Positions 678-64,000 of a stretch of 64,000 nt of DNA are shown here, piece by piece. The stretch spans positions 19,041 through 83,040 of the forward strand of contig JBMOKT010000017.1 in assembly GCA_049323895.1 (NCBI GenBank), read 5' to 3'. The notes below the pieces were generated by a model that saw only the letters and a program-made list of their open reading frames with translations, made no database searches and was not told the origin of the DNA. A program made the translations under genes and the position numbers. Source of the DNA: Bacillota bacterium. Lineage in GTDB: Bacteria; Bacillota; Peptococcia; Peptococcales; BICA1-8. Position 1 is the first letter of the stretch, and each line of letters begins with the position of its first letter.

Positions 678-751
678 AGTGGCTAGTTGTTAGTTGGCTA
701 GTGGCAAATAAAAGAAGTGACTGGTTACTGATTACTGGAATTTGGTTAAGT
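678..751 (+). repeat. Copy A of a ~75-bp GTGGCTAG/GTGACTGG intergenic element
   Basis: AGTGGCTAGTTGTTAGTTGGCTAGTGGCAAATAAAAGAAGTGACTGGTTACTGATTACTGGAATTTGGTTAAGT. It aligns almost base for base with 4096-4168 (reverse strand) and 34569-34642. Confidence 0.8.
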
Positions 752-4095: not shown

Positions 4096-4168
4096 ACTTA
4101 ACCAAATTCCAGTCACCCGTCACCAGTCACTTGTTTTACTAGCCACCAGCCACTAACAACTAGCCACT
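4096..4168 (-). repeat. Copy B of the GTGGCTAG/GTGACTGG element, in the nrdD-nrdG spacer
   Basis: The reverse complement reads AGTGGCTAGTTGTTAGTGGCTGGTGGCTAGTAAAACAAGTGACTGGTGACGGGTGACTGGAATTTGGTTAAGT. Confidence 0.8.
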
Positions 4169-6776: not shown

Positions 6777-6919
6777 TTTGTTTCACTCCCATTAATAAAA
6801 TTAGGGGCAAGTAAACTTTGGGTAGATTTTTTGGAAAAGTTTTTTAGAAATCTTAGAGGGTTTTTCTGCCTGCAGCTAGAACATAGATTGTATGTATATA
6901 GAGTAAAAACACACAAATG

Positions 6920-6967
6920 TCACTATATTTAGTGACATTTACTATTTTATACTACTATATTTAGTAT
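6920..6967 (-). promoter_or_regulatory. Two tandem NrdR boxes overlapping the nrdR-nrdD-nrdG promoter
   Basis: tCACTATATTTAGTGa (6920-6935) and tACTATATTTAGTAt (6952-6967) share the core CTATATTTAG. Centre-to-centre spacing is 32 bp. Both fit the published NrdR-box palindrome acaCwAtATaTwGtgt. TATAAAAT lies between them on the coding strand. Confidence 0.7.
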
Positions 6968-7000
6968 GTCAAACCATAATTTTACAGAAACCAAAAACAA

Positions 7001-7025
7001 AAAAGCGCCTCATGGCGCTTTTTTC
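7001..7025. terminator. Bidirectional intrinsic terminator separating ylmC from the nrd operon
   Basis: AAAAAAGCGCC-tcat-GGCGCTTTTTT. Confidence 0.8.
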
Positions 7026-7122
7026 TCAGAAGCAGATGCATCCCTATATGTTCACCTTCATTGAATGCTTGCCTTATCCTAAGCCTCAACCTAGACCTTA
7101 ACCTAAAACCGCCTTGGCGGTT

Positions 7123-7419
7123 TTAGAGTTCCGCCTTTCTAACCCACTCTTCATTTTTATCCCTTCTAGGTAATTCAGTAAATTGTATTGCTTCTACCAG
7201 GATAACATCTATCCCAATTCTGATTATTTTTTCCCAGGGCACAATATAATCTTCTTTTTTATTGAAAATATTAAGGAACCTGCTGGCACCAGGAAGAATT
7301 AAAGCGGTTATTCTGCCTGTCTCCACATCAATATCGATATCCTTAATTGGTCCTAAACGTCTCCCATCAATTACATTAATTATTTCCCGTTCTTGCAAAT
7401 CCGAAACTTTAGCAAGCAT
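7123..7419 (-). CDS. ylmC: YlmC/YmxH-family sporulation protein (PRC-barrel)
   Basis: SDLQEREIINVIDGRRLGPIKDIDIDVETGRITALILPG matches the YlmC/YmxH signature. A hairpin AAAACCGCC-ttgg-GGCGGTTTT lies at the stop. Confidence 0.8.
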   Translation of the reverse strand: MLAKVSDLQEREIINVIDGRRLGPIKDIDIDVETGRITALILPGASRFLNIFNKKEDYIVPWEKIIRIGIDVILVEAIQFTELPRRDKNEEWVRKAEL

Positions 7420-7527
7420 GAGTACCCCTCCTTATAGATGGACAATATATGTATATGTGCAGTTGCAGTTTTAATGACAAAAAAATAAACCAGGCGAAAG
7501 AACCTGGTTGTATATGCAGTCAATTAT

Positions 7528-8935: not shown

Positions 8936-8967
8936 GCCATTTACCCCCTAAGTTCAGAGCTTATTTT

Positions 8968-8997
8968 AGTTATTGCCTTGGGAAGGGTTGATTATTC
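8968..8997 (-). promoter_or_regulatory. Candidate forespore (sigma-F/G type) promoter of sigG
   Basis: The coding strand reads GAATA-15 nt-GGCAATAACT. This resembles GywTA-N15-GGnrAnAnTw with one mismatch in each element. It lies about 30 nt upstream of the sigG RBS. Confidence 0.35.
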
Positions 8998-9099
8998 CAG
9001 GCAAAGGATAAAAATGGCTAAAATGGTTAAAGTCCTTTCATTCGGAGATTTGTGAATTTAGTAAAAAAACTTCAAATTGAATTTCTTTAGTGCCCAGTG

Positions 9100-9174
9100 G
9101 GGGGTGTCAGGGGACGGTTCTCTGTCACGGCTTGCGCCGAAGGGCGTGACAGAGAACCGTCCCCTGACACCCCC
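9100..9174. repeat. 30-bp perfect GC-rich inverted repeat with a 15-nt loop, between sigE and sigG
   Basis: GGGGGTGTCAGGGGACGGTTCTCTGTCACG (9100-9129) pairs perfectly with CGTGACAGAGAACCGTCCCCTGACACCCCC (9145-9174). The loop is GCTTGCGCCGAAGGG. Confidence 0.9.
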
Positions 9175-9195
9175 GACACCATAAATAAATACGAC

Positions 9196-9217
9196 AAAAC
9201 GGGCTTACGCCCGTTTT
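9196..9217 (-). terminator. Intrinsic terminator overlapping the sigE stop codon
   Basis: Minus strand reads TAA-AACGGGC-gtaa-GCCCGTTTTGTCGTATTT. Confidence 0.8.
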
Positions 9218-11984: not shown

Positions 11985-12050
11985 TTAGAAAAACACGGCT
12001 TGCGCCAAGCCTTTGGCGGCTGCGGAAAAGTTATGCTCCCTTATAAGTAT
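11985..12050 (+). repeat. Copy 1 of a ~60-bp TTAGAAAACACGGCTTGCGCC element
   Basis: TTAGAAAAACACGGCTTGCGCCAAGCCTTTGGCGGCTGCGGAAAAGTTATG... It aligns with 26430-, 56112- and 58193- (reverse strand). Confidence 0.75.
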
Positions 12051-26429: not shown

Positions 26430-26480
26430 TTAGAAAACACGGCTTGTGCCGAGCCTTTGGCGAGTTCTCATAAATATAAA
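26430..26480 (+). repeat. Copy 2 of the TTAGAAAACACGGCTTGCGCC element
   Basis: TTAGAAAACACGGCTTGTGCCGAGCCTTTGGCGAGTTCTCATAAATAT. Confidence 0.75.
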
Positions 26481-28785: not shown

Positions 28786-30186
28786 CTAAACAGATGCTAA
28801 GGTTTCCCGTTTTGCTAAAACATCTGCCAAATCAGCGCCAACCTTCCATATGTTCCCTGCCCCTAAGGTTAGAATTAAATCACCTGACCTTGCTACCTCA
28901 GCTAAATAATTTTCCAGTGATTCCCTATTTTTAAAATAATTTAAATCTGTATGGGGGGGTATATGGTCTGCTATTAATTGGGTTGATACACCTGAAATAG
29001 GTTTTTCACCCGCTGAGTAAACCTCATCTAAAATCAGTTTGTCGGCTAAATCAAAGCTTTTTGCAAATTCCTTTGCTAAAAATTGGGTCCTTGTAAACCT
29101 ATGGGGTTGAAAAACAGCAATAATCCTGCCGGAATGACTACTCCTGGCTGCTTGGAGAGTTGCTTTAATTTCTGTTGGGTGATGGGCATAATCATCAACT
29201 ATTAAAATATCATTAATGTTTGCTATTATTTGGAAACGCCTTTGTACTCCACGGAAGTTAGAAAGTGCCTGGTTTATCTTTTCAAAGCTGATGCCAAATT
29301 CAAGACCAACGGCAACGGCAGCTAATGCGTTACTTATATTATGCTTTCCAGGCACATTTAGTTCCAATTGGCCTATAAATTTATCACCATAGAATATATC
29401 CGCCATACTTGTTAAACCGTTGTATATAATATTTTTCGCTGTATAGTCAGCATCTTCAGCTAAGCCATAAGTTATCAATTTTCCAGGAATATGGTCAGCA
29501 AGTTGCCTGACATAAAAATTATCGTTGCAAAGGACTGAAAATCCTTGAGGACTTCCAAGATCAACAAATTCATTAAATGCTTTTATTATATTCTCCAGGG
29601 AACCGTAATAATCCAAATGGTCATCTTCGATGTTTGTTATTACTGTAGACCATGGTTTAAGCTTGAGGAAGGAACCATCACTTTCGTCGGCTTCAGCAAC
29701 CAGATACTCACCTCTCCCTAACTTTGCATTTCCGCCGATATCATTTAGTTCTCCTCCTACAACTACCGTAGGATCAAATTCATTCTTTTCCAAAACCAAG
29801 GCAATCATTGAAGTTGTTGTGGTTTTTCCATGGGCTCCGGCAATACAAATCCCTTTCTGCCGCTCCATCAGCTGACTAAGCATCTCGGCCCTTTGTAAAA
29901 TAGGAATATTTAATTCCTTTGCCCGCTGAACCTCCTGGTTTTCTTCAGGGATTGCTGTGGAGACCACTACCTTATCCACTCCCTGCTGAATATTTATTGC
30001 CTTGTGCCCGGCATAGACAATCGCACCATTTTCTTCCAGTCTTTTTGTTGTTTCTGATACATTCAAATCTGACCCAGAAACCCTATAGCCTAAATCTAAT
30101 AAAACCTTGGCAATGCCACTCATTCCGGCACCACCAATTCCTACAAAATGTATCCATTCTTTTTTTGCTTTAGTCAAAACTTTCAA
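28786..30186 (-). CDS. murC: UDP-N-acetylmuramate--L-alanine ligase
   Basis: Contains HFVGIGGAGMSGIA, GAHGKTTTTSMI and DDYAHHP. Confidence 0.95.
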   Translation of the reverse strand: MKVLTKAKKEWIHFVGIGGAGMSGIAKVLLDLGYRVSGSDLNVSETTKRLEENGAIVYAGHKAINIQQGVDKVVVSTAIPEENQEVQRAKELNIPILQRAEMLSQLMERQKGICIAGAHGKTTTTSMIALVLEKNEFDPTVVVGGELNDIGGNAKLGRGEYLVAEADESDGSFLKLKPWSTVITNIEDDHLDYYGSLENIIKAFNEFVDLGSPQGFSVLCNDNFYVRQLADHIPGKLITYGLAEDADYTAKNIIYNGLTSMADIFYGDKFIGQLELNVPGKHNISNALAAVAVGLEFGISFEKINQALSNFRGVQRRFQIIANINDILIVDDYAHHPTEIKATLQAARSSHSGRIIAVFQPHRFTRTQFLAKEFAKSFDLADKLILDEVYSAGEKPISGVSTQLIADHIPPHTDLNYFKNRESLENYLAEVARSGDLILTLGAGNIWKVGADLADVLAKRETLASV

Positions 30187-30303
30187 CTCCTTCCAGCCAT
30201 TCTAGCACAACGCAAATATAAAGGCGGAGTATATTCTTTACTTTATATGCAGCATCATGAAAAGATGTTACAACTGCTCCCTTTAGAAGATAATCCTGGT
30301 GAC

Positions 30304-30332
30304 TATTATTGGCTTATGTATAGTATTGTCAA
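30304..30332 (-). promoter_or_regulatory. Candidate sigma-A promoter for murC, downstream of the repeat array
   Basis: The coding strand reads TTGACA-17 nt-ATAATA. Confidence 0.45.
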
Positions 30333-30447
30333 AAAAAAATTGTTCTACATAATGATAAAAAAAAATAAATAGGAACATTAGCAGGCCTGTCCATGCTTTC
30401 TTTAGAGCAAAACTCTTGAGACAGACATGCCAAGCAGCTGTCCTTTT

Positions 30448-30905
30448 GGGTCTGACAATACTAATAATGCGATACTTGGGGTCTGTCTTGGTCAGTTTAT
30501 TGCGTCTGATATACTTCTCGGTCAATTTATTGCGTCCGATATACTTGAGGGTCTAGCTGTTGCGTCTGACATGAACTTTTTGGTCAGTCTATTTCGTCTG
30601 ACATACTTAAGGGTTTAGCTGTTGCGTCTGACACAAGCATTGCATGTTAATCCAAAAGTAGTCAGACTAACAATCTTACTCTGAAGTATATCAGACTAAA
30701 AATGTCCACCCAGAAGCAATTGTCAGACTAGCAATGTTTACCCATTAGAATATCAGACTAACAATGTCACCCAAAAGTATATCAGACCAGTAATCTTCAC
30801 CTAAAAGCAAATCAGACTAGCAATGTTGACTATGAAGAATTGTCAGACGCTCAATCTTCACCCAGAAGTTTATCTGGCAAGCAATCTTCACCCTGAAGTA
30901 AGATC
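30448..30905. repeat. Head-to-head array of about 15 degenerate 28-33-bp units (locus 1)
   Basis: About 6 units of type GGTCAnTTTATTGCGTCTGATATACTT occupy 30448-30638. The centre (30639-30653) contains AAGCATTGCATG. About 8.5 units of type AAGTATATCAGACTAaCAATcTTCACCC occupy 30654-30905. Confidence 0.9.
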
Positions 30906-32000
30906 TTGAAGAACCTTCATTATTTTCTCCAAAGAATCGGGATTTCCTGCTTTTTTCATGTTTACAGACATTTCCTTAAGTTTGTTGGAATCATTAATTA
31001 GCCCTGCAATGGTATTATATAGATTATCCCTATTCAGGTCTTTTTCTAAAATCATGGCTGCACCTTTACTTGCAACTAGTGATCGGGCATTAAATTCTTG
31101 GTGGTTTTCGGCAGCAAAAGGATAAGGAATTAAAATTCCTGGAAGCCCCAGAGAAGTAATTTCTGCAATGAATGTGGCCCCTGCCCTGCCCACACATAAA
31201 TCAGCAGCATTTAGAGCATATTCCATTTCATATATGTATGGCTTAAGAATAATTTTTCCGTATTTTTCCAAATTTATACCCATTGTTGTCAATTTTTCTA
31301 CAATTTGAGTATACCCTTCCTCCCCGGTAGTATGGATCAACTGCAAATTAGGTATGGTTAAAAGTTGAGGATAAATTTCAACCATGGCATTATTGATGCT
31401 TTTTGCTCCCCTGCTGCCCCCGCTGACTAAAAGGGTAAATTTATCTTCCTGGAGACCAAAATATTGGCTAGCTTCTTTTTTGCCAATGTTAAAAATTTCC
31501 TCCCGAACAGGCAAACCTGTTAATATTGTTTTGTTAGGATTGGGGAAATATTTCTGCGAATCGGGAAAAGTTATCATTATTTTATTTACAATACGGGCTA
31601 AGGTTTTATTAGTAAGTCCCGGCAGAGCATTTTGTTCGTGAATAACGGCAGGAATTTGCAAAAGGGATGCAGCTAAAACTACAGGTCCGCACACATATCC
31701 CCCGGTTCCCATCACTACCTGGGGACGGAATTTCCTAATGATATTAAAGGCCTGGGTTCCACCCTGGACTGCTTTTAAACCAGCCCGAGCAGCCTGCCAG
31801 GAAAACTTTCTCTGCCATCCTTCAACTTCAATGGTTGCAAAAGCAATACCTGCCTCAGGTACTATTTTTGACTCTAAACCTCTTTTAGTCCCAACATAAA
31901 GAACTTCTGCCTGCGGATAATTATTTAAGATATGTTTGGCTACAGCCAGGGCAGGATATACATGCCCCCCGGTTCCCCCGCCTGTAAAAAGGATTCTCAT
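30888..32000 (-). CDS. murG: Undecaprenyldiphospho-muramoylpentapeptide beta-N-acetylglucosaminyltransferase
   Basis: Contains TGGGTGGHVYPALAVA and GGSRGA. Confidence 0.95.
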   Translation of the reverse strand: MRILFTGGGTGGHVYPALAVAKHILNNYPQAEVLYVGTKRGLESKIVPEAGIAFATIEVEGWQRKFSWQAARAGLKAVQGGTQAFNIIRKFRPQVVMGTGGYVCGPVVLAASLLQIPAVIHEQNALPGLTNKTLARIVNKIMITFPDSQKYFPNPNKTILTGLPVREEIFNIGKKEASQYFGLQEDKFTLLVSGGSRGAKSINNAMVEIYPQLLTIPNLQLIHTTGEEGYTQIVEKLTTMGINLEKYGKIILKPYIYEMEYALNAADLCVGRAGATFIAEITSLGLPGILIPYPFAAENHQEFNARSLVASKGAAMILEKDLNRDNLYNTIAGLINDSNKLKEMSVNMKKAGNPDSLEKIMKVLQDLTSG

Positions 32001-34568: not shown

Positions 34569-34642
34569 AGTGGCTAGTTGTTAGTGGCTAGTGGCTAGAA
34601 AAATAAGTGACTGGTGCACTAGTTTGATAGTTTGATAGTTGG
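34569..34642 (+). repeat. Copy C of the GTGGCTAG/GTGACTGG element
   Basis: AGTGGCTAGTTGTTAGTGGCTAGTGGCTAGAAAAATAAGTGACTGGTGCACTAGTTTGATAGTTTGATAG. Confidence 0.8.
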
Positions 34643-34800
34643 CATCTGCTTCTGGGTGAAAATTGTTAGTCCGATTACCTTTAGGAGTAGCTTGCAATGC
34701 TTGTGTCAGACGCAATAAATTGACCAAGAAGTATTCAGACTAAAAAGCTAGACCCTTAAGTACATCAGACCCAACAGCTAAACCCTTAAGTATAATTATA
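34643..34800. repeat. Short head-to-head array of the ~30-bp unit family (locus 2)
   Basis: One unit CTGGGTGAAAATTGTTAGTCCGATTACC is followed by the centre GCTTGCAATGCTT, which is the reverse complement of the locus-1 centre. Three to four opposite units follow: GTGTCAGACGCAATAAATTGACC, AAGTATTCAGACTAAAAAGCTAGACCC, TTAAGTACATCAGACCCAACAGCTAAACCC. Confidence 0.85.
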
Positions 34801-35745
34801 ACTCATCAGCCCTGCTACAACTAATAACGCGGCGGCGGTCCAGAAGGTAAGAACTACCCTTTCTTCCGACCATCCCTTAAGTTCAAAATGGTGATGGAGG
34901 GGACTCATCAAGAATATCCTTTGCCCAGTTAGCTTAAAGGAAATTACTTGCATGATTACCGACAGGGCTTCTAGTACATAAACTCCGCCGATAATGGGCA
35001 GAAACAACTCGGTTTTCGTGAAAACAGCCAGGGCTGCTATTGCGCCACCTAATGCCAAAGAACCAGTATCCCCCATAAAGACTTTGGCAGGATGGATATT
35101 AAAAAACAGAAAACCTAAACAGCTCCCTACTAAAGCTGCACTAAAAACTGTAATACTGAAAAGCTCCTCAGAAAATCCCAATAAAACATAACCTAAGGAA
35201 ACAAAAAGGGTGATTCCGGCAGCCAACCCATCCAAACCGTCTGTCAGATTAACAGCATTGGTAGTGCCTATGGCAACAAATACTACGAAAGGAATGTAAA
35301 ATACACCCAAATCAAAGGTGTTGCCAATAAAAGGAACAAGCAATTGGGTTCCCCTGCCTAGGTAATTTACCGCAGACCACGCCAAGAGCACCGACAATAT
35401 CAACTGACCTATCAGCTTATCCCTGGCTTTTAACCCCAGAGACCTTTTTTTAATAATTTTAATATAATCATCAATAAAACCAATGAGTCCATAACCCAAG
35501 GTAAAAATAAGCAGAACATAAGTAATAAGGCTTTCCTGTGCCACGAATACAGTTCCCAAGGTTAAGCTGAAAAGAAACATAACACCTCCCATGGTGGGAG
35601 TGCCTTGCTTTTGCAAATGTCTTTTGGGGCCATCATCCCTTACACTTTGTCCAAACTTGAGCCGCCTCAGGGCAGGAATTAAGAATGGTCCTAGTACCAG
35701 GCACGCGCCTGTGCTTACAAAAAATGCTATTAAAATATCTTTCAC
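34786..35745 (-). CDS. mraY: Phospho-N-acetylmuramoyl-pentapeptide transferase
   Basis: Contains PTMGG, NAVNLTDGLDGLA and MGDTGSLALGG. Confidence 0.95.
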   Translation of the reverse strand: MKDILIAFFVSTGACLVLGPFLIPALRRLKFGQSVRDDGPKRHLQKQGTPTMGGVMFLFSLTLGTVFVAQESLITYVLLIFTLGYGLIGFIDDYIKIIKKRSLGLKARDKLIGQLILSVLLAWSAVNYLGRGTQLLVPFIGNTFDLGVFYIPFVVFVAIGTTNAVNLTDGLDGLAAGITLFVSLGYVLLGFSEELFSITVFSAALVGSCLGFLFFNIHPAKVFMGDTGSLALGGAIAALAVFTKTELFLPIIGGVYVLEALSVIMQVISFKLTGQRIFLMSPLHHHFELKGWSEERVVLTFWTAAALLVVAGLMSYNYT

Positions 35746-38734: not shown

Positions 38735-40837
38735 ATGGGGTTCCTCGTTTGGCGAGGAAAATTGCACTTTTACAATGGTACCCTGCTCCACCTCTGTGCC
38801 TGGATAAGGTTCCTGCAGGGCAGCCAAACCACTTCCTTGAGGAGCCATGCGCAAACCAATATCATTTAATATTTTACTGGCTTCCTTAATAGTTCTGCCT
38901 GTTAAATCCGGTACCACAATTTGTTGGGACTCATTCAACTGGGAATACAATACTACTAAACTGCCTTTTTGAACTGGAGTGCCCGCCGGCGGCAACTGGC
39001 TGATTATCTTATCGCCGTTCCCTTCAACTTTTACTTCAAGTTTTAGGGCTTTTAGTTCTTTGACAGCTGCCTCAGTGTTTTTGTCCTTGACATCTGGCAC
39101 AGTTATTTGCCCACTGGCAGTTTGCGGTTTTTGCTCTAATTCCGGTGGTATCTGCAAATACCGTAATGTATCCAGTATAATATTTCTAAATACAGGTCCG
39201 GCTACCTGTCCCCCATAATATATACCCTGAGGTGAATCAACAATTACCAATGCAGCAATTCGGGGATTGTCGGCAGGTGCAAAGCCGGCGAAAGACGCTA
39301 TATACTCACTGGTAGAATATCCTCCACCGGGAAGTATTTTTTGTGCAGTACCCGTTTTGCCCGCAACCTTATAACCCTCAATATACGCCTTAGAACCAGT
39401 TCCATCACTTACCACTGTCTCTAAAATAGCCCTTAGTTCTTCTGATGTTGTTTTAGAAATTACCTGTCTCTGCGGCTCTGGGTCATTTTTTCTAACCAAT
39501 TTACCTTCATAATCCCTTATTTCCTTTACCAACTGGGGCTTCATCAGCCATCCATCATTGGCAATAGCAGCGACGGCTCTTGTTAACTGAATAGGTGTAA
39601 CTGCATTGGCCTGCCCTATTGACATGGTTGCCAAGTCAATATCCTTAGCCCTAGTCTTGGGTACCAATATCCCATTAGCTTCACCGGGAAGTTCTATGCC
39701 GGTCTTTTGACCAAACCCGAATCCCTCCAAATACTTATAAAAACGGTCCTTCCCCTGCCGTAAGCCTACAGTTACAAAAACAGGGTTGCAAGAATTCTGC
39801 ACCCCCTCTATAAAAGATTGGCTGCCATGGGGGGTCCGGGACCAGCATTTGATAGTTTCCTTTCCTACTTTTATATAGCCCGGGTCATAGAACCTATCAT
39901 TGGGCTTTACAACATTTTCTTCCATAGCTCCCGCAGCGGTTACCGTTTTAAAGGTTGAACCCGGTTCATATGCATCAGATATAGCAAAATTCCGCCAGGT
40001 GCCTTTGTCATAGTCGGCGTAATTATTAGGATCAAAAACAGGTCTATTCGCCAAGGCCAGAATCTCTCCTGTTTTTACATCCAGTACGAGGATAGCACCC
40101 CTTTTTGCCTGCTTAATCTTCATGACCTGGTCCAATTCACGCTCAATTATGTATTGAATAGTCTCATCAATAGTTAAATAAATACTGTTTCCATCAATAG
40201 GAGGAATATATTGGTGCATAGCATTGGGGATTTCCCGGCCCGCTGCATCGTACTCGATCATGATTTTCCCGGAAACGCCCCTCAGTTCCTTATCATATGT
40301 AAGTTCAATACCGTTAAGTCCCTGGTTGTCAATGCCTGCAAAGCCCAAGATATGGGCTCCCAGGGTGCCTTTAGGGTAATAACGCTGGTTTTCCTCTACA
40401 AAATTGATGCCCGGCAAATCCAGTTCCTTTAATTCCTTAACTTTTTCATCAGGCACCCTGCGTTTTATCCATTCAAAAGCTACCTTTTTATTTATCTTTG
40501 CCAGTATTTCTTCTTTATCCAGTTCTAAAACCTTGCTTAAAGTTTCGGCAATTTCATCTGCCCTTTGGGATCGGCGTATTTGGGACGGGACTGCATAAAC
40601 AGAATCAGCACTTACACTAATTGCTAATGGACTACCATTTCGGTCATAAATAATGCCTCGCTTTGCCTTTACGTCGATATTTCTTAATCGACTATCAATG
40701 GCTTTGGCCTGGAGTTCCTTTCCCATTATTAACTGAATCCAGGCAGCCCTAGCCACTAAAAGGCCTAACAGCAAGGCTGAAATTAAAAAGATAAAGCTGA
40801 TTCTTTTTTTCATAGTTAAACTAACCAAGTTGCCCAC
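38714..40837 (-). CDS. Class B penicillin-binding protein (FtsI/PBP2B/SpoVD type) with two C-terminal PASTA domains
   Basis: It has an N-terminal TM segment, a dimerisation domain, transpeptidase motifs STFK, SCN and KTGT, then two PASTA repeats (VPDV..., VPDLTGRT...). Confidence 0.92.
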   Translation of the reverse strand: MGNLVSLTMKKRISFIFLISALLLGLLVARAAWIQLIMGKELQAKAIDSRLRNIDVKAKRGIIYDRNGSPLAISVSADSVYAVPSQIRRSQRADEIAETLSKVLELDKEEILAKINKKVAFEWIKRRVPDEKVKELKELDLPGINFVEENQRYYPKGTLGAHILGFAGIDNQGLNGIELTYDKELRGVSGKIMIEYDAAGREIPNAMHQYIPPIDGNSIYLTIDETIQYIIERELDQVMKIKQAKRGAILVLDVKTGEILALANRPVFDPNNYADYDKGTWRNFAISDAYEPGSTFKTVTAAGAMEENVVKPNDRFYDPGYIKVGKETIKCWSRTPHGSQSFIEGVQNSCNPVFVTVGLRQGKDRFYKYLEGFGFGQKTGIELPGEANGILVPKTRAKDIDLATMSIGQANAVTPIQLTRAVAAIANDGWLMKPQLVKEIRDYEGKLVRKNDPEPQRQVISKTTSEELRAILETVVSDGTGSKAYIEGYKVAGKTGTAQKILPGGGYSTSEYIASFAGFAPADNPRIAALVIVDSPQGIYYGGQVAGPVFRNIILDTLRYLQIPPELEQKPQTASGQITVPDVKDKNTEAAVKELKALKLEVKVEGNGDKIISQLPPAGTPVQKGSLVVLYSQLNESQQIVVPDLTGRTIKEASKILNDIGLRMAPQGSGLAALQEPYPGTEVEQGTIVKVQFSSPNEEPHEETIGP

Positions 40838-41379: not shown

Positions 41380-41606
41380 GGTATTCTCCCTCCTTCAAAT
41401 TTAGAACAAAATTCGTTGATTGGTCTGTTCGTCAAGTCGTCTTTTCGCTCTATATCTGTACTAAAAATAGTTATTGGTGACTGGTGACTAATAAAAATAA
41501 TTAATATATCTGTGTCCACCCGTGTGTGAAAGTCATCCGTGGCTAAATTTTCTCTTTCGACTGGTGCTTGCAACATGTGGGTCTGTGGCCCTGGATCATT
41601 CTCATG

Positions 41607-56055: not shown

Positions 56056-56111
56056 TTTATTCCCTTCCTTCTACTTACATACCCTTCTCTACCAATAATT
56101 TCATTTACAAA

Positions 56112-56170
56112 TTAGAAAACAGGGCTTACACCGAACCTATGGCAACCGCGGAAGCCGATGTTGTACTTAT
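56112..56170 (+). repeat. Copy 3 of the TTAGAAAACACGGCTTGCGCC element
   Basis: TTAGAAAACAGGGCTTACACCGAACCTATGGCAACCGCGGAAGCCGATGTTGTACTTAT. Confidence 0.75.
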
Positions 56171-56210
56171 ATTTATTACCTTGCAAAAATTATACTTTCT
56201 AAATAAGTAT

Positions 56211-56238
56211 AAAAAATCCTGCTTTCGCAGGATTTTTT
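56211..56238 (-). terminator. Intrinsic terminator after the GH18 gene
   Basis: AAAAAATCCTGC-tttc-GCAGGATTTTTT. Confidence 0.85.
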
Positions 56239-56252
56239 ATTTTTTCAATTGT

Positions 56253-57932: not shown

Positions 57933-58134
57933 ATTTCAACCCCTTATTGCTTTCTTTTTGACTCCTTTGCTTTATTCGCTAATAAGGCATACTATCCTTT
58001 TGTTAATTAATGCAAAAGAAAAAGCACCGGGGACAGGTACTTTTGCTTGTAAATTACAATAAAGGAACGACCCGAGGTCCATTCCTTATTTATACATATC
58101 AGAAGGTATAAAACCTCCCAAAAAGGTAATAAGC

Positions 58135-58193
58135 ATAAGTGCAACATCGGCTTCCGCAGTCGCCAAAGACTCGGCGCAAGCTATGTTTTCTAA
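58135..58193 (-). repeat. Copy 4 (inverted) of the TTAGAAAACACGGCTTGCGCC element
   Basis: The reverse complement reads TTAGAAAACATAGCTTGCGCCGAGTCTTTGGCGACTGCGGAAGCCGATGTTGCACTTAT. Confidence 0.75.
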
Positions 58194-58196
58194 TAC

Positions 58197-58634
58197 CTAT
58201 GTTATTTTCATTTTACTTAAAACCTCATTAATTTCCTTACGACCTTTCCCAACCTCTTGCAGTTTATCTTGCAATATGGCTTGGGCTGTTTCCAGAAGCT
58301 GATCAACAAAGTCCTGCGCCTCTGCAATAACCTTTTGGGCATTTTCCTCGTACCCATTACATGACTCCTGGTGGTTATTTTCCACTGCTGCTTCCACAGG
58401 ATTTGTTTCCTTTTGGCAAGTCAACGCCCCTTCCCCCTTCTCGTAGCTTTCATAAAGCTTTTTCATTTCTTTCATCTCTTTAGGAAGTTTGCTGCGCAAT
58501 TTGTCAAGATAGTCATAAACTATGTCTTTATCCACAATTACCTTATTGCTAAAAGGAATAGCTTTGCTTTCCATAATATATGTTTCTAAATCCATTATAA
58601 ACTTATATGTTTCTATCGCGGATTTGAACTCCAT
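58197..58634 (-). CDS. Hypothetical coiled-coil protein
   Basis: 145-aa ORF. The N-terminal IPFSNKVIVDKD pattern recurs in uncharacterised Firmicute proteins. I cannot assign a function. Confidence 0.55.
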   Translation of the reverse strand: MEFKSAIETYKFIMDLETYIMESKAIPFSNKVIVDKDIVYDYLDKLRSKLPKEMKEMKKLYESYEKGEGALTCQKETNPVEAAVENNHQESCNGYEENAQKVIAEAQDFVDQLLETAQAILQDKLQEVGKGRKEINEVLSKMKIT

Positions 58635-58816
58635 CCCTACCTGCCTCCATTTAAAAGTAGAATATTGTCGAACTATTACTATTTTACTACTTAAAGGAAA
58701 AATCAGCTAGTACTGGTTGGAAAGTGTTTTTATTGAAACAACTGTAACACAAAAGACCTCCCATTAATAATATGTTACGAAACAAAACAATATTTTTAAG
58801 GAGGCGACCGTTTGTA

Positions 58817-62434: not shown

Positions 62435-63046
62435 TTAAAAAATGCTAGACCAGATGGCATAGACTCCAAAACCGGCAATAACAGTACCTGAGAACCTATT
62501 GATAAGTCTTAGGCCTCCTTCAGTGACTTTATTTTTGACCAAACCAACTCCCTGGCTCAGGATAAACCACCACAAGGCAGAACCCATAAATACCCCTGCA
62601 ACCAAAGTTGCCGCCGCAGCATAGCTGCTATCAACCATAGCAACACCCAGACCGGCAAAAACAGCAATATAATATATGATGGCAATAGGATTGGTAATGG
62701 CAACAATAAAGGAAGAAGCAAAAGCAGTCAATAAACCATAGCCTGTTGCTGAAGCGTCATCTACTGCAGGCTTAGTGATAAATATCTTATAGCCTAGATA
62801 GATGATAAAGGTTCCCCCAATAAGACGGAAAATATTTTGCTGACTAACCAGAAAATTAGAAATCATTGTCAAACCAAAGCCTCCTATGGAGGCATAAATT
62901 AAATCTGTGACTGCAGCACCCATTCCTGTCACAAAACCATATAATCTGCCCCCGGCTAAGGTTCTCCTGATGCACAAAACCCCTATGGGACCTACAGGTG
63001 CAGCTATTGACAAACCAATTATAAATCCTTGCAGCCAAATTTCCAT
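62435..63046 (-). CDS. LysE/RhtB-family amino-acid exporter
   Basis: Contains GLSIAAPVGPIGVLCIRRTL and about 6 TM segments. Confidence 0.85.
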   Translation of the reverse strand: MEIWLQGFIIGLSIAAPVGPIGVLCIRRTLAGGRLYGFVTGMGAAVTDLIYASIGGFGLTMISNFLVSQQNIFRLIGGTFIIYLGYKIFITKPAVDDASATGYGLLTAFASSFIVAITNPIAIIYYIAVFAGLGVAMVDSSYAAAATLVAGVFMGSALWWFILSQGVGLVKNKVTEGGLRLINRFSGTVIAGFGVYAIWSSIF

Positions 63047-63069
63047 AAAAACACCTTCTTATATTTTTT

Positions 63070-63430
63070 TAAGGAATTCATTCTATGTCAGTTATATCTA
63101 AAAGGATTCATTTTTGGTCAGTTTCTTGCTCACGGGATTCATTGTTGATTAGTTAGTTCTAGTGGGATTCATGCTTTGTCAGTTATTTCTTAAGGGATTC
63201 ATTTTGAGTCAGTTATATCTGTGTGATTCATTGTTTGTAAGTTACTTCTATTGTAATCTTCGATTGTCAGTTAAAAACTGACTAACAATGTTCACCTAGA
63301 AGCATCAACTGACTAACAATCTCAACCCTTAAGCATTGTCTGACTAGCAATCTACACCCATTAGCCTTATCTGACTAGCAATCTTCACCCAAAAGCATTA
63401 TCTGACCTACAATGTTTACCCATTAGCCTT
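63070..63430. repeat. Head-to-head array of about 12 units of the ~30-bp family (locus 3)
   Basis: About 7 units of type GGGATTCATTTTGAGTCAGTTATATCT occupy 63070-63262. The centre is ATTGTCAGTT-AAAA-ACTGACTAACAAT. About 5.5 opposite units of type TTAAGCATTGTCTGACTAGCAATCTTCACCC run to 63430. Confidence 0.9.
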
Positions 63431-64000
63431 GAGCCTTTCTGCTAACTTCGTATTCCGCTGGCTGACGGTGTTATTTTTCACTGCCATGGCAAGGGCTCTG
63501 GCTGAACCGACCAATACCAGCACTTTTTTGGCCCTGGTCACACATGTGTATAGGAGGTTTCTCTGCAGCATCATATAGTGCTGTGTAACCAAAGGAGCTA
63601 CTACAATCTTATACTCACTCCCCTGGCTTTTATGTACTGTAGTAGCATAGGCCAGTACAACTTCATCCAGTTCAGTCACATCATATTCTACGTCTACGTC
63701 ATCAAATCTGATTTTTACCTGTTTATCTTCCAGATCAATATGGGTTATCCGGCCGATATCACCATTAAAAACATTTTTCTCATAATTATTCTTAATCTGC
63801 ATTACTTTATCATAAAGCTTATACTTAACGCCCCCATTATTAAGAAATGTATTGTTGGGGTTTAACGCCTCCTGCAAAACTTCATTAAGGTTGCGTGCCC
63901 CTGCCTCCCCCCTCTGCATGGGGGTAATGACCTGTATATCACCTACTGGATCCACTCTGTAAAAGGCAGGTAGTCTTGTCTTGCAGAGGGATTTTATATG
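63416..64000 (-). CDS. recD2: RecD2-type SF1 DNA helicase, C-terminal part; the 5' end runs off the right edge
   Basis: Contains ATTVHKSQGSEYKIVV (helicase motif VI region) and LLYTCVTRAKK. The frame stays open to position 64000. Confidence 0.85.
   Translation of the reverse strand, partial: HIKSLCKTRLPAFYRVDPVGDIQVITPMQRGEAGARNLNEVLQEALNPNNTFLNNGGVKYKLYDKVMQIKNNYEKNVFNGDIGRITHIDLEDKQVKIRFDDVDVEYDVTELDEVVLAYATTVHKSQGSEYKIVVAPLVTQHYMMLQRNLLYTCVTRAKKVLVLVGSARALAMAVKNNTVSQRNTKLAERLKANG

Follow-up and report, generated by a model that had tools for sequence, protein, structure and literature searches.

Stop codons of murG, mraY and recD2 within the units of two-armed 30-nt repeat elements in a clostridial genome stretch

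Gene ends within repeat units

The DNA analysed here (the window) is a 64-kb stretch of contig JBMOKT010000017.1 from a Peptococcales assembly (GCA_049323895.1), and it carries on its minus strand the dcw cell-wall/division cluster (mraZ, rsmH, ftsL, ftsI, murE, murF, mraY, murD, ftsW, murG, murC, murB and so on). Three genes of the window, murG, mraY and recD2, all on the minus strand, have their stop codon inside the outermost unit of an array of repeats of 30-31 nucleotides (nt). MurG (370 amino acids (aa); 30888..32000) was identified with Pfam by its Glyco_transf_28 and Glyco_tran_28_C domains, the C-terminal one ending at residue 357, and MraY (319 aa, close relatives having mostly 320-322 aa; 34786..35745) by Glycos_transf_4 and MraY_sig1. 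The third gene (63416..64000) is the 3' part of a RecD2-type helicase gene running off the window end; SH3_13 and UvrD_C_2 correspond to the C-terminus of a RecD-like helicase, and HHH_RecD2 is present at the locus of a close homologue.

The murG reading frame ends in ctt act tca ggg TGA with the stop at 30888-30890, that of mraY in tat aat tat act TAA, followed by ggg, with the stop at 34786-34788, and that of recD2 in aag gct aat ggg TAA with the stop at 63416-63418. The gene-proximal units, all on the minus strand, were located by a unit profile at 30871-30900 (murG, 18.3 bits), 34764-34793 (mraY, 14.2 bits) and 63399-63427 (recD2, 16.0 bits), and reach 10, 5 and 9 nt upstream of the respective stops. 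In murG, the unit provides the last three to four codons (L-T-S-G) and the TGA. The first murG unit, TTACTTCAGGGTGAAGATTGC, resembles the next one, AAACTTCTGGGTGAAGATTGA, when the array is split at the GTCWGA motif; the first recD2 unit, AAGGCTAATGGGTAAACATTG, has AAGGCTAATGGGT in common with unit 3, AAGGCTAATGGGTGTAGATTG; and the mraY end, TACTTAAGGGTTTAGCT, agrees with unit 2, TACTTAAGGGTCTAGCT, at 16 of 17 positions. The preliminary description of this DNA had placed the three stops within repeat units, and this was confirmed: its coordinates are right and the first units score 14-18 bits.

The 21-nt core of the unit gave 7 window matches with at most 3 mismatches, for 0.01 expected. The profile detects arrays at just three places of the 64 kb, the ends of these three genes, its sole further match being isolated and weak (39213-39233, 6.2 bits, E = 5). 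Each of the three arrays begins flush at the stop of the gene upstream, despite spacers far longer than the array (701 nt for murG-murC and 236 nt for mraY-murD). On the 30-nt profile, the stop occupies unit positions 11-13 in murG (GGG-TGA) and recD2 (GGG-TAA), and positions 5-7 in mraY (ACT-TAA-GGG). A location at the junction between units, as proposed earlier, is therefore not a general rule, but the three genes do read the unit in one common frame and register.

It had also been suggested that the arrays grew into the 3' ends of these genes and replaced their native C-termini. MurG has 370 aa in the window and 369-370 aa in four relatives (71-73% identical) without an array after murG. 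After KIMKVL, these array-free proteins end in EEVATNKK, EETIG, GDLSF and EEVATIRK, and the window protein in QDLTSG. Comparison of the murG tail of L003 (GAT CTT AGT TTC TGA, DLSF) with that of the window (GAT CTT ACT TCA GGG TGA, DLTSG) places the junction within the short homology CTTAnTT, with at most 2-3 residues changed; here and below, L-numbers designate sequence stretches from relatives and metagenome contigs. RecD2 is conserved as far as RNTxLAxRL; the tails beyond this motif have about 1-15 residues, a range that includes the window tail KANG. The closest RecD2 homologue, P0002, is truncated through a frameshift artefact of a 1.5x-coverage assembly and not through repeat insertion. 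The MraY motif Y-x-x-T-(F/L) is native, being kept in relatives at 60-66% identity (YHITLTNL and YALTMGNIRI, for example). In close relatives, MraY ends in YNYTFG or HDYTLG and has 321 aa, a length also found without any 30-nt array in Desulfonispora DSM 11270 (TAT ACT TTT ATG TAG, 15-nt spacer) and in L002 (TAT ACT TTT AGT TAA). Only the window MraY is 2 aa shorter. The compared ends indicate that the window mraY end has probably been homogenised with array unit 2, gaining its TAA in this way, which would explain the shorter protein.

The Pfam domains of all three proteins end ahead of the tails. Replacement is thus confined to 1-4 non-conserved terminal residues: the repeat accounts for no more than 3-4 non-conserved residues of MurG and RecD2, nothing conserved is truncated, and orthologue lengths are equal for MurG and MraY. 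For mraY, the suggestion largely failed, the stop position being essentially conserved without the repeat, as the 321-aa proteins of array-free genomes attest.

Structure and placement of the elements

The 30-nt unit consensus obtained from the iterated profile is TACTTCTGGGTGAAGATTTTGCGTCTGACA. Positions TACTT, GGGT, A14, T17 and GCGTCTGACA are near-invariant and the others variable, although the way in which the units were found overstates this conservation. Mutual information between unit positions separated two subtypes, GGGTGAAnA and GGGTCTAGC, and gave no base-pairing signal. Every element has the form [30-nt units]n - centre - [inverted units]m, and the adjacent arms, in the window and its relatives, converge in all 24 pairs and diverge in none. 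The GCGTCTGACA ends of the units face the centre, whereas the TACTT-nn-GGGT ends face outward (TACTT.../...AAGTA). The innermost units continue into a palindrome, GCGTCTGACA-CAAGC...GCTTG-TGTCAGACGC, with conserved centre borders. In the commonest unit subtype, CGTC occurs within GCGTCTGACA and not at the end of a palindrome; the window gene-proximal arms carry TAGTCTGA or TAGTCAGA instead. The two arms of a single element often differ in unit subtype. Centres are 16-200 nt long, and the long ones hold further tandem modules, themselves inverted: heptamers, a GCGAAGCGAAA module and CTTAAC hexamers. Such nested inverted modules (heptamers, CTTAATCTAGCGAAGCGAAAT module, CTTAAC hexamers) were seen in L013 (1697-1900), L039 (420-580) and L052 (662-811 and 9246-9395), and further centres of this kind in L046 (6193-6317) and L070 (12497-12633), giving a multi-layer foldback structure.

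In the window, Tandem Repeats Finder reported a period of 30-31 nt at 30486-30633, 30644-30893, 34735-34792, 63071-63250 and 63278-63427. The gene-proximal arm of the murG-murC element (30661..30900, minus strand) is formed by 8 head-to-tail units of 29-32 nt, for which the program gave period 30 and 8.3 copies, in addition to the profile matches. It is followed by a centre, or loop, at 30634..30660, which begins at the border between GTCTGACA and CAAGCATTGCATG, a border recurring in other elements, and by a distal arm of 5 opposite units (30486..30633, plus strand), whose alternating subtypes produce a 62-nt higher-order period. Between this element and murC lies a strong promoter-like site, TTGACA-16-AATAAT, at 30332-30305 (minus strand). 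Another motif upstream of murC, GCATATAAAGTAAAGAAyATAC...CTAGAATGGCTGGAAGGAGTTGAAG (about 30205-30250, minus strand), recurs by eye in L001-L004 and L082, the remainder of the spacer around it differing in both length and content; it could represent a leader or regulatory element.

The mraY-murD element is shorter, with a gene-proximal arm of 3 units (34704..34793, minus strand), the first of which gives the ACT (Thr) codon and the TAA stop of mraY, a centre at 34677-34703 with its border between GCTTG and TGTCAGAC, and a single opposite-orientation unit found by the profile (34647..34675, plus strand). In the recD2 element, 5 units of 31 nt make up the gene-proximal arm (63276..63427, minus strand), the first unit holding the codons (K)ANG and TAA, and 6-7 diverged units (GGGATTCAT...GTCAGTTA) the distal arm (63068..63271, plus strand), which extends to the ribosome-binding site of the LysE-family reading frame that comes next (62435-63046).

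Whole elements are predicted to fold into long imperfect hairpins, with z-scores of -8.0 for murG-murC, -4.0 for recD2, and -14.7 and -13.1 for two elements of metagenome contigs. The short mraY-murD element gave a weak hairpin, no better than shuffled sequence (z = -1.0). Single units are not palindromic: six of them, folded as single-stranded DNA, had minimum free energies of 0 to -2.7 kcal/mol and z-scores of -1.4 to +1.1. The only stem within single units is a 4-5-bp CTTC/GAAG pairing in one subtype, and a mini-hairpin in each unit (CTTC-UGGGU-GAAG) was rejected since units fold no better than shuffles. Scans of the three window arrays revealed no intrinsic-terminator-like site inside any of them.

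The common frame was then considered over 156 full units. Read as ACT-Tnn-GGG-Tnn, all 156 are closed by a stop, if not earlier then by the TGA of GTC-TGA-CA (positions 26-28), and 65 of them have in addition a TAA, TAG or TGA at positions 5-7 or 11-13; in the two other frames, a stop is found in 55 and 41 units. The window genes stop after 1-3 codons in the frames used, and alternative frames would add up to 13-26 codons. Because the arms converge with their outermost TACTT ends outward, a gene entering from either side reads the units in the same sense. The same frame is used at other junctions, in L010 (gat act ttg ggg TAA), L069 (act caa ggg tcg agc TAA) and L040 (tct TAA ggg), as well as in mraY of relatives (ACT TTG GGG TGA in L001, ACT ATG GGG TAA in L003 and ACT ATT GGG TGA in L004). 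Two junctions, the left one of L010 and that of L046, are in another frame. Every frame through the window arrays is broken by stops, the longest open stretch of 17-33 codons falling short of the next start.

Among 23 element boundaries facing a stop codon, the stop lies within the first detected unit in 7 and 4-19 nt upstream of it in 8 more, and at several of the remaining boundaries a degenerate unit could be recognised by eye in between. Most of the 25 boundaries facing a start codon end 7-70 nt before it, leaving room for a ribosome-binding site. Elements were found in co-directional, convergent and divergent spacers. The L010 element provides the stops of both convergent neighbours, and the element at L046 2749-3271 lies between divergent genes, where there is no stop codon. 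The earlier idea that arrays nucleate exactly at stop codons is consequently not supported: given their tightness at start regions and their placement in all three kinds of spacer, the arrays occupy nearly all dispensable spacer and are not tied to stop codons.

When metagenome contigs were scanned by pattern, 71 stretches came up. Real arrays are present in about 30, mostly from one metagenome, Ga0209643, whose contigs include the BRH_c20a organism; L048 corresponds to the mraY-murD region of L001. The window MurG is 71-73% identical to that of metagenome-assembled genomes labelled Clostridiaceae BRH_c20a, Peptococcaceae BICA1-8 and others, and the window MraY is 72% identical to that of Desulfonispora thiosulfatigenes. 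The element family was found in a narrow clade of Clostridia (phylum Bacillota) and appears to be undescribed so far. Against Rfam 15, the window had no match at gathering thresholds, and 30150-30950 none at E<=1. A non-exhaustive literature search yielded no named family in Peptococcaceae or Clostridia and no bacterial foldback elements. A CRISPR array was ruled out, the units being contiguous (period equal to unit length, 30-31 nt) without spacers and the arms inverted. In viral contigs, the pattern matched just twice, each time in isolation and outside any array, and a phage origin was discarded. An informal by-eye comparison with consensus sequences of transcription-factor operators (MraZ, CtsR, Spo0A, LexA and others) disclosed no convincing likeness.

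Turnover and interpretation

The arrays differ between genomes at orthologous spacers. The murG-murC array is present in the window only, an mraZ-rsmH array exists in L030/L035 and L084, where the window spacer measures 13 nt, and the Desulfonispora dcw cluster contains no array. Between BRH_c20a and BICA1-8, flanking coding sequence is about 90% identical and the spacers are unalignable. A unit-by-unit correspondence of their arrays was rejected, nothing being found beyond one common 19-mer. This 19-mer, CTATTGGGTT(A/G)AGATATT (L001 7100-7140 and L004 2590-2630), precedes GCGTCTGACA in BRH_c20a but GGATGCATCC in BICA1-8, so that the 3' conserved block of the unit seems, from this comparison, to have been exchanged between genomes. 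L084 too has units of the GATGCATC type, and the window has one copy in the spacer 6777-7527.

Between loci, the elements reach only 71-84% identity. Four identical units in L047 were seen, pointing to a probable recent local amplification. Taken with the differing subtypes of the arms, the identity between loci and the identical units within an arm suggest an evolution mainly by local tandem turnover with no sign of recent transposition; the only 100%-identical copies were in each case one locus assembled twice (L030=L035, L034=L067, L001=L048). In L084 (14610-14637), murG owes its final two codons and its TAG to a heptamer array, (AGTCAAT)n (gcc att agt caa TAG tcaatagtcgatag), which indicates that a repeat-supplied gene end is not specific to the 30-mers. 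Heptamer repeats rather than 30-mers follow the mraY stop in relatives.

We consider it fairly probable that the three gene ends are a by-product of the build and tolerance of foldback-like intergenic elements, with no mechanism specific to stop codons. The elements would fill essentially all dispensable spacer, and their outermost unit would be joined to the few unconstrained codons with which the upstream gene ends, probably via short-homology deletion or gene conversion at a TACTT-like native sequence. Selection would retain only fusions closing the frame within a few codons, a closure that the unit guarantees in one frame. Lying between co-oriented genes and having no terminator of their own, the elements are most likely co-transcribed with the flanking genes (two of the three window elements are inside the dcw cluster) and would form long imperfect RNA hairpins. 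Their most probable effect would be that of a structural barrier or processing site in the mRNA, as for the repetitive extragenic palindromes (REPs) and bacterial interspersed mosaic elements (BIMEs), beside a selfish persistence by local tandem amplification.

Several observations weigh against this by-product interpretation. The three window arrays are all stop-flush and in one register, a small and tidy sample that would also fit selected placement. Unit positions are near-invariant across loci that are 71-84% identical and across genera, which hints at a sequence-specific function not named by a passive model, detection bias inflating the signal. In Desulfonispora, where mraY has no array, the gene end TATACTTTTATGTAG is already similar to the unit in its 5' half, a similarity that we would take as a fortunate homology anchor. 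Finally, no target-site duplication or clean empty-versus-filled junction was recovered, and the fusion mechanism is therefore one that we infer.

Selected placement would mean that a hairpin at or inside the stop tunes the upstream gene, either by impeding terminating ribosomes (stalling/trans-translation) or by protecting the 3' end from exonucleases. In the predicted murG-murC fold, the last murG codons would pair with the far end of the distal arm, with the UGA within the stem; 15 of the 23 stop-facing boundaries have the stop in the first detected unit or less than 20 nt upstream; the elements reside in an essential operon where relative cistron levels matter; and the invariant unit positions suggest constraint. 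There is also a precedent in E. coli, where REP elements within 15 nt of stop codons are said to lower expression via stalling/trans-translation, as Liang, Rudd and Deutscher reportedly found in 2015. However, the elements are equally tight at start regions and exist where there is no stop, relatives have heptamers and not 30-mers after the mraY stop and lack the murG-murC array, the mraY-murD element folds like shuffled sequence (z = -1.0), and arms of different subtypes maintain the hairpin through their conserved blocks only, so we regard selected placement as doubtful. We are just as hesitant about a wider proposal, in which the family would be an undescribed class of bacterial foldback element owing its maintenance across genera to a trans-acting factor that recognises its sequence (a dedicated recombinase, or else a protein binding DNA or RNA), contact with the stop serving post-transcriptional control of operon cistrons, for example those of dcw.

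The differing presence at orthologous spacers, the long terminal inverted arms in strict orientation, the TACTT-like sequence in native tails at two junctions and the breaking of assemblies at arrays would all agree with mobile foldback or miniature transposon-like elements, inserting site-specifically at targets resembling their own TACTT..GGG end, some of which happen to be gene ends. Such mobility is nevertheless quite unlikely: with only 71-84% identity between loci, there is no trace of recent transposition, TACTT is missing from the recD2 junction, and filled and empty mraZ-rsmH sites compared by eye displayed no target-site duplication, a weak negative in view of the fuzzy boundaries. 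No transposase was identified in the fragments analysed, in which no search for a gene of the RAYT (REP-associated tyrosine transposase) type was made. Very improbable, in our opinion, is an origin of the unit at a gene end, by tandem duplication of the native mraY 3' end (TAT ACT TTx GGG TGA) with its spacer and later spread to other spacers. Of all spacers, mraY-murD is the one where repeats of the family are found in most genomes (the window, L001/L048 and L003, with a remnant in L084), and the array-free outgroup mraY end matches the conserved 5' unit positions. The likeness is nevertheless restricted to about 11-13 nt and leaves out the most conserved block, GCGTCTGACA, to which nothing in the outgroup spacer corresponds; copying could have run in either direction, and the same data are explained by a chance homology anchor.

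Known systems share part of these properties. The REP and BIME sequences of Proteobacteria stabilise mRNA and reduce translation when located within 15 nt of a stop codon. Like them, the window family is a high-copy intergenic repeat found downstream of reading frames, mostly downstream of genes and inside operons in the case of REP/BIME; it sometimes gives the stop codon, and opposite-orientation copies fold into larger hairpins in both. However, the REP unit is itself a palindrome of 20-40 bp, whereas single units of the window family do not fold, and it is only as whole arms, built of direct tandem units, that its sequences are inverted relative to each other. Of the conserved unpaired GTAG or CGTC tag that REP units bear at one end, CGTC is seen within GCGTCTGACA of the commonest subtype, as noted above, away from the end of a palindrome. 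We know of no RAYT transposase for this family. REP termini often supply the stop codon of flanking reading frames and copies in opposite orientation form larger hairpins (PMC3733652); this survey makes no mention of Firmicutes or Clostridia. Mycobacterial interspersed repetitive units (MIRUs) are likewise tandem units in the intercistronic spacers of operons with ends overlapping the flanking gene ends, and are regarded as mobile elements whose insertion disturbs expression only minimally (PMC12548453). They differ by a short reading frame coupled to the downstream start and by a single orientation, whereas the window family has units of 30-31 nt, not always a multiple of 3, all frames closed by stops, and two inverted arms.

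The BOX element of Streptococcus pneumoniae is another modular intergenic repeat of Firmicutes, organised as boxA-(boxB)n-boxC with a variable number of 45-nt boxB and complementary ends forming a hairpin. It has no sequence similarity to the window family and places one central tandem module between unique ends, whereas here tandem units form both inverted arms and nested repeat modules are in the centre. The closest architectural match is found in the Foldback elements of Drosophila, with their long terminal inverted arms of tandem subrepeats (10, 20 and 31 bp) and a short or absent centre; these are eukaryotic and their mobility and transposase are documented. As in a miniature inverted-repeat transposable element or foldback transposon, terminal inverted repeats are present, in 24 of 24 elements, but neither near-identical dispersed copies (71-84%) nor a target-site duplication was seen, again a weak negative with boundaries so fuzzy.

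Repeat-supplied stops being already known from REPs, and the consequence for the MurG, MraY and RecD2 proteins being negligible, the value of the three gene ends lies mainly in annotation: gene 3' ends and contig breaks in this clade are shaped by arrays, and not too much should be read into orthologues that differ by a short stretch at the C-terminus. Of greater interest as a by-product is the family of elements, strictly oriented two-armed 30-nt arrays, nested with other repeats, in essential operons of uncultured subsurface Clostridia. Should a trans-acting factor or an RNA-level role be true, it would constitute a Firmicute counterpart to REP/BIME and MIRU.

Other repeats of the spacers and assembly breaks

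Short-read assemblies break exactly at arrays: L006, a Logan contig of SRR32167787, starts at the mraY-murD array and L084 ends at the murG heptamers. Gene ends adjoining arrays are accordingly prone to being cut off in metagenome-assembled genomes. The heptamer at which the L084 contig ends is also present in the rsmH-ftsL spacer of L084.

Spacer heptamers of the CTAGCCA, CTAGTCA and CCAGTCA types (CAGTGnT in relatives) gave 9 window matches for 0.44 expected, at 34570-34598 (minus strand), 4109-4167 (plus), 679-705 (minus) and 41477-41491 (minus). Among relatives, heptamers were observed at L001 7060-7110, at L004 2535-2570 and in the L082 and L084 spacers before murD and murF; several heptamer arrays, such as those before murD and murF, are directly upstream of the ribosome-binding site. 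They recall the short tandemly repeated repetitive (STRR) heptamers of cyanobacteria. The CTAGTCA heptamer core is also contained in the 3' block of the window 30-nt unit.

A second dispersed intergenic repeat, CGCCAAAGGCTTGGCGCAAGCCGTGTTTTCTAA, was detected at 11986-12018 and 26430-26462, both on the minus strand (2 matches with at most 3 mismatches, 0 expected), and weaker copies were recognised by eye in the spacers 56056-56252, 8936-9215 and 57933-58771.

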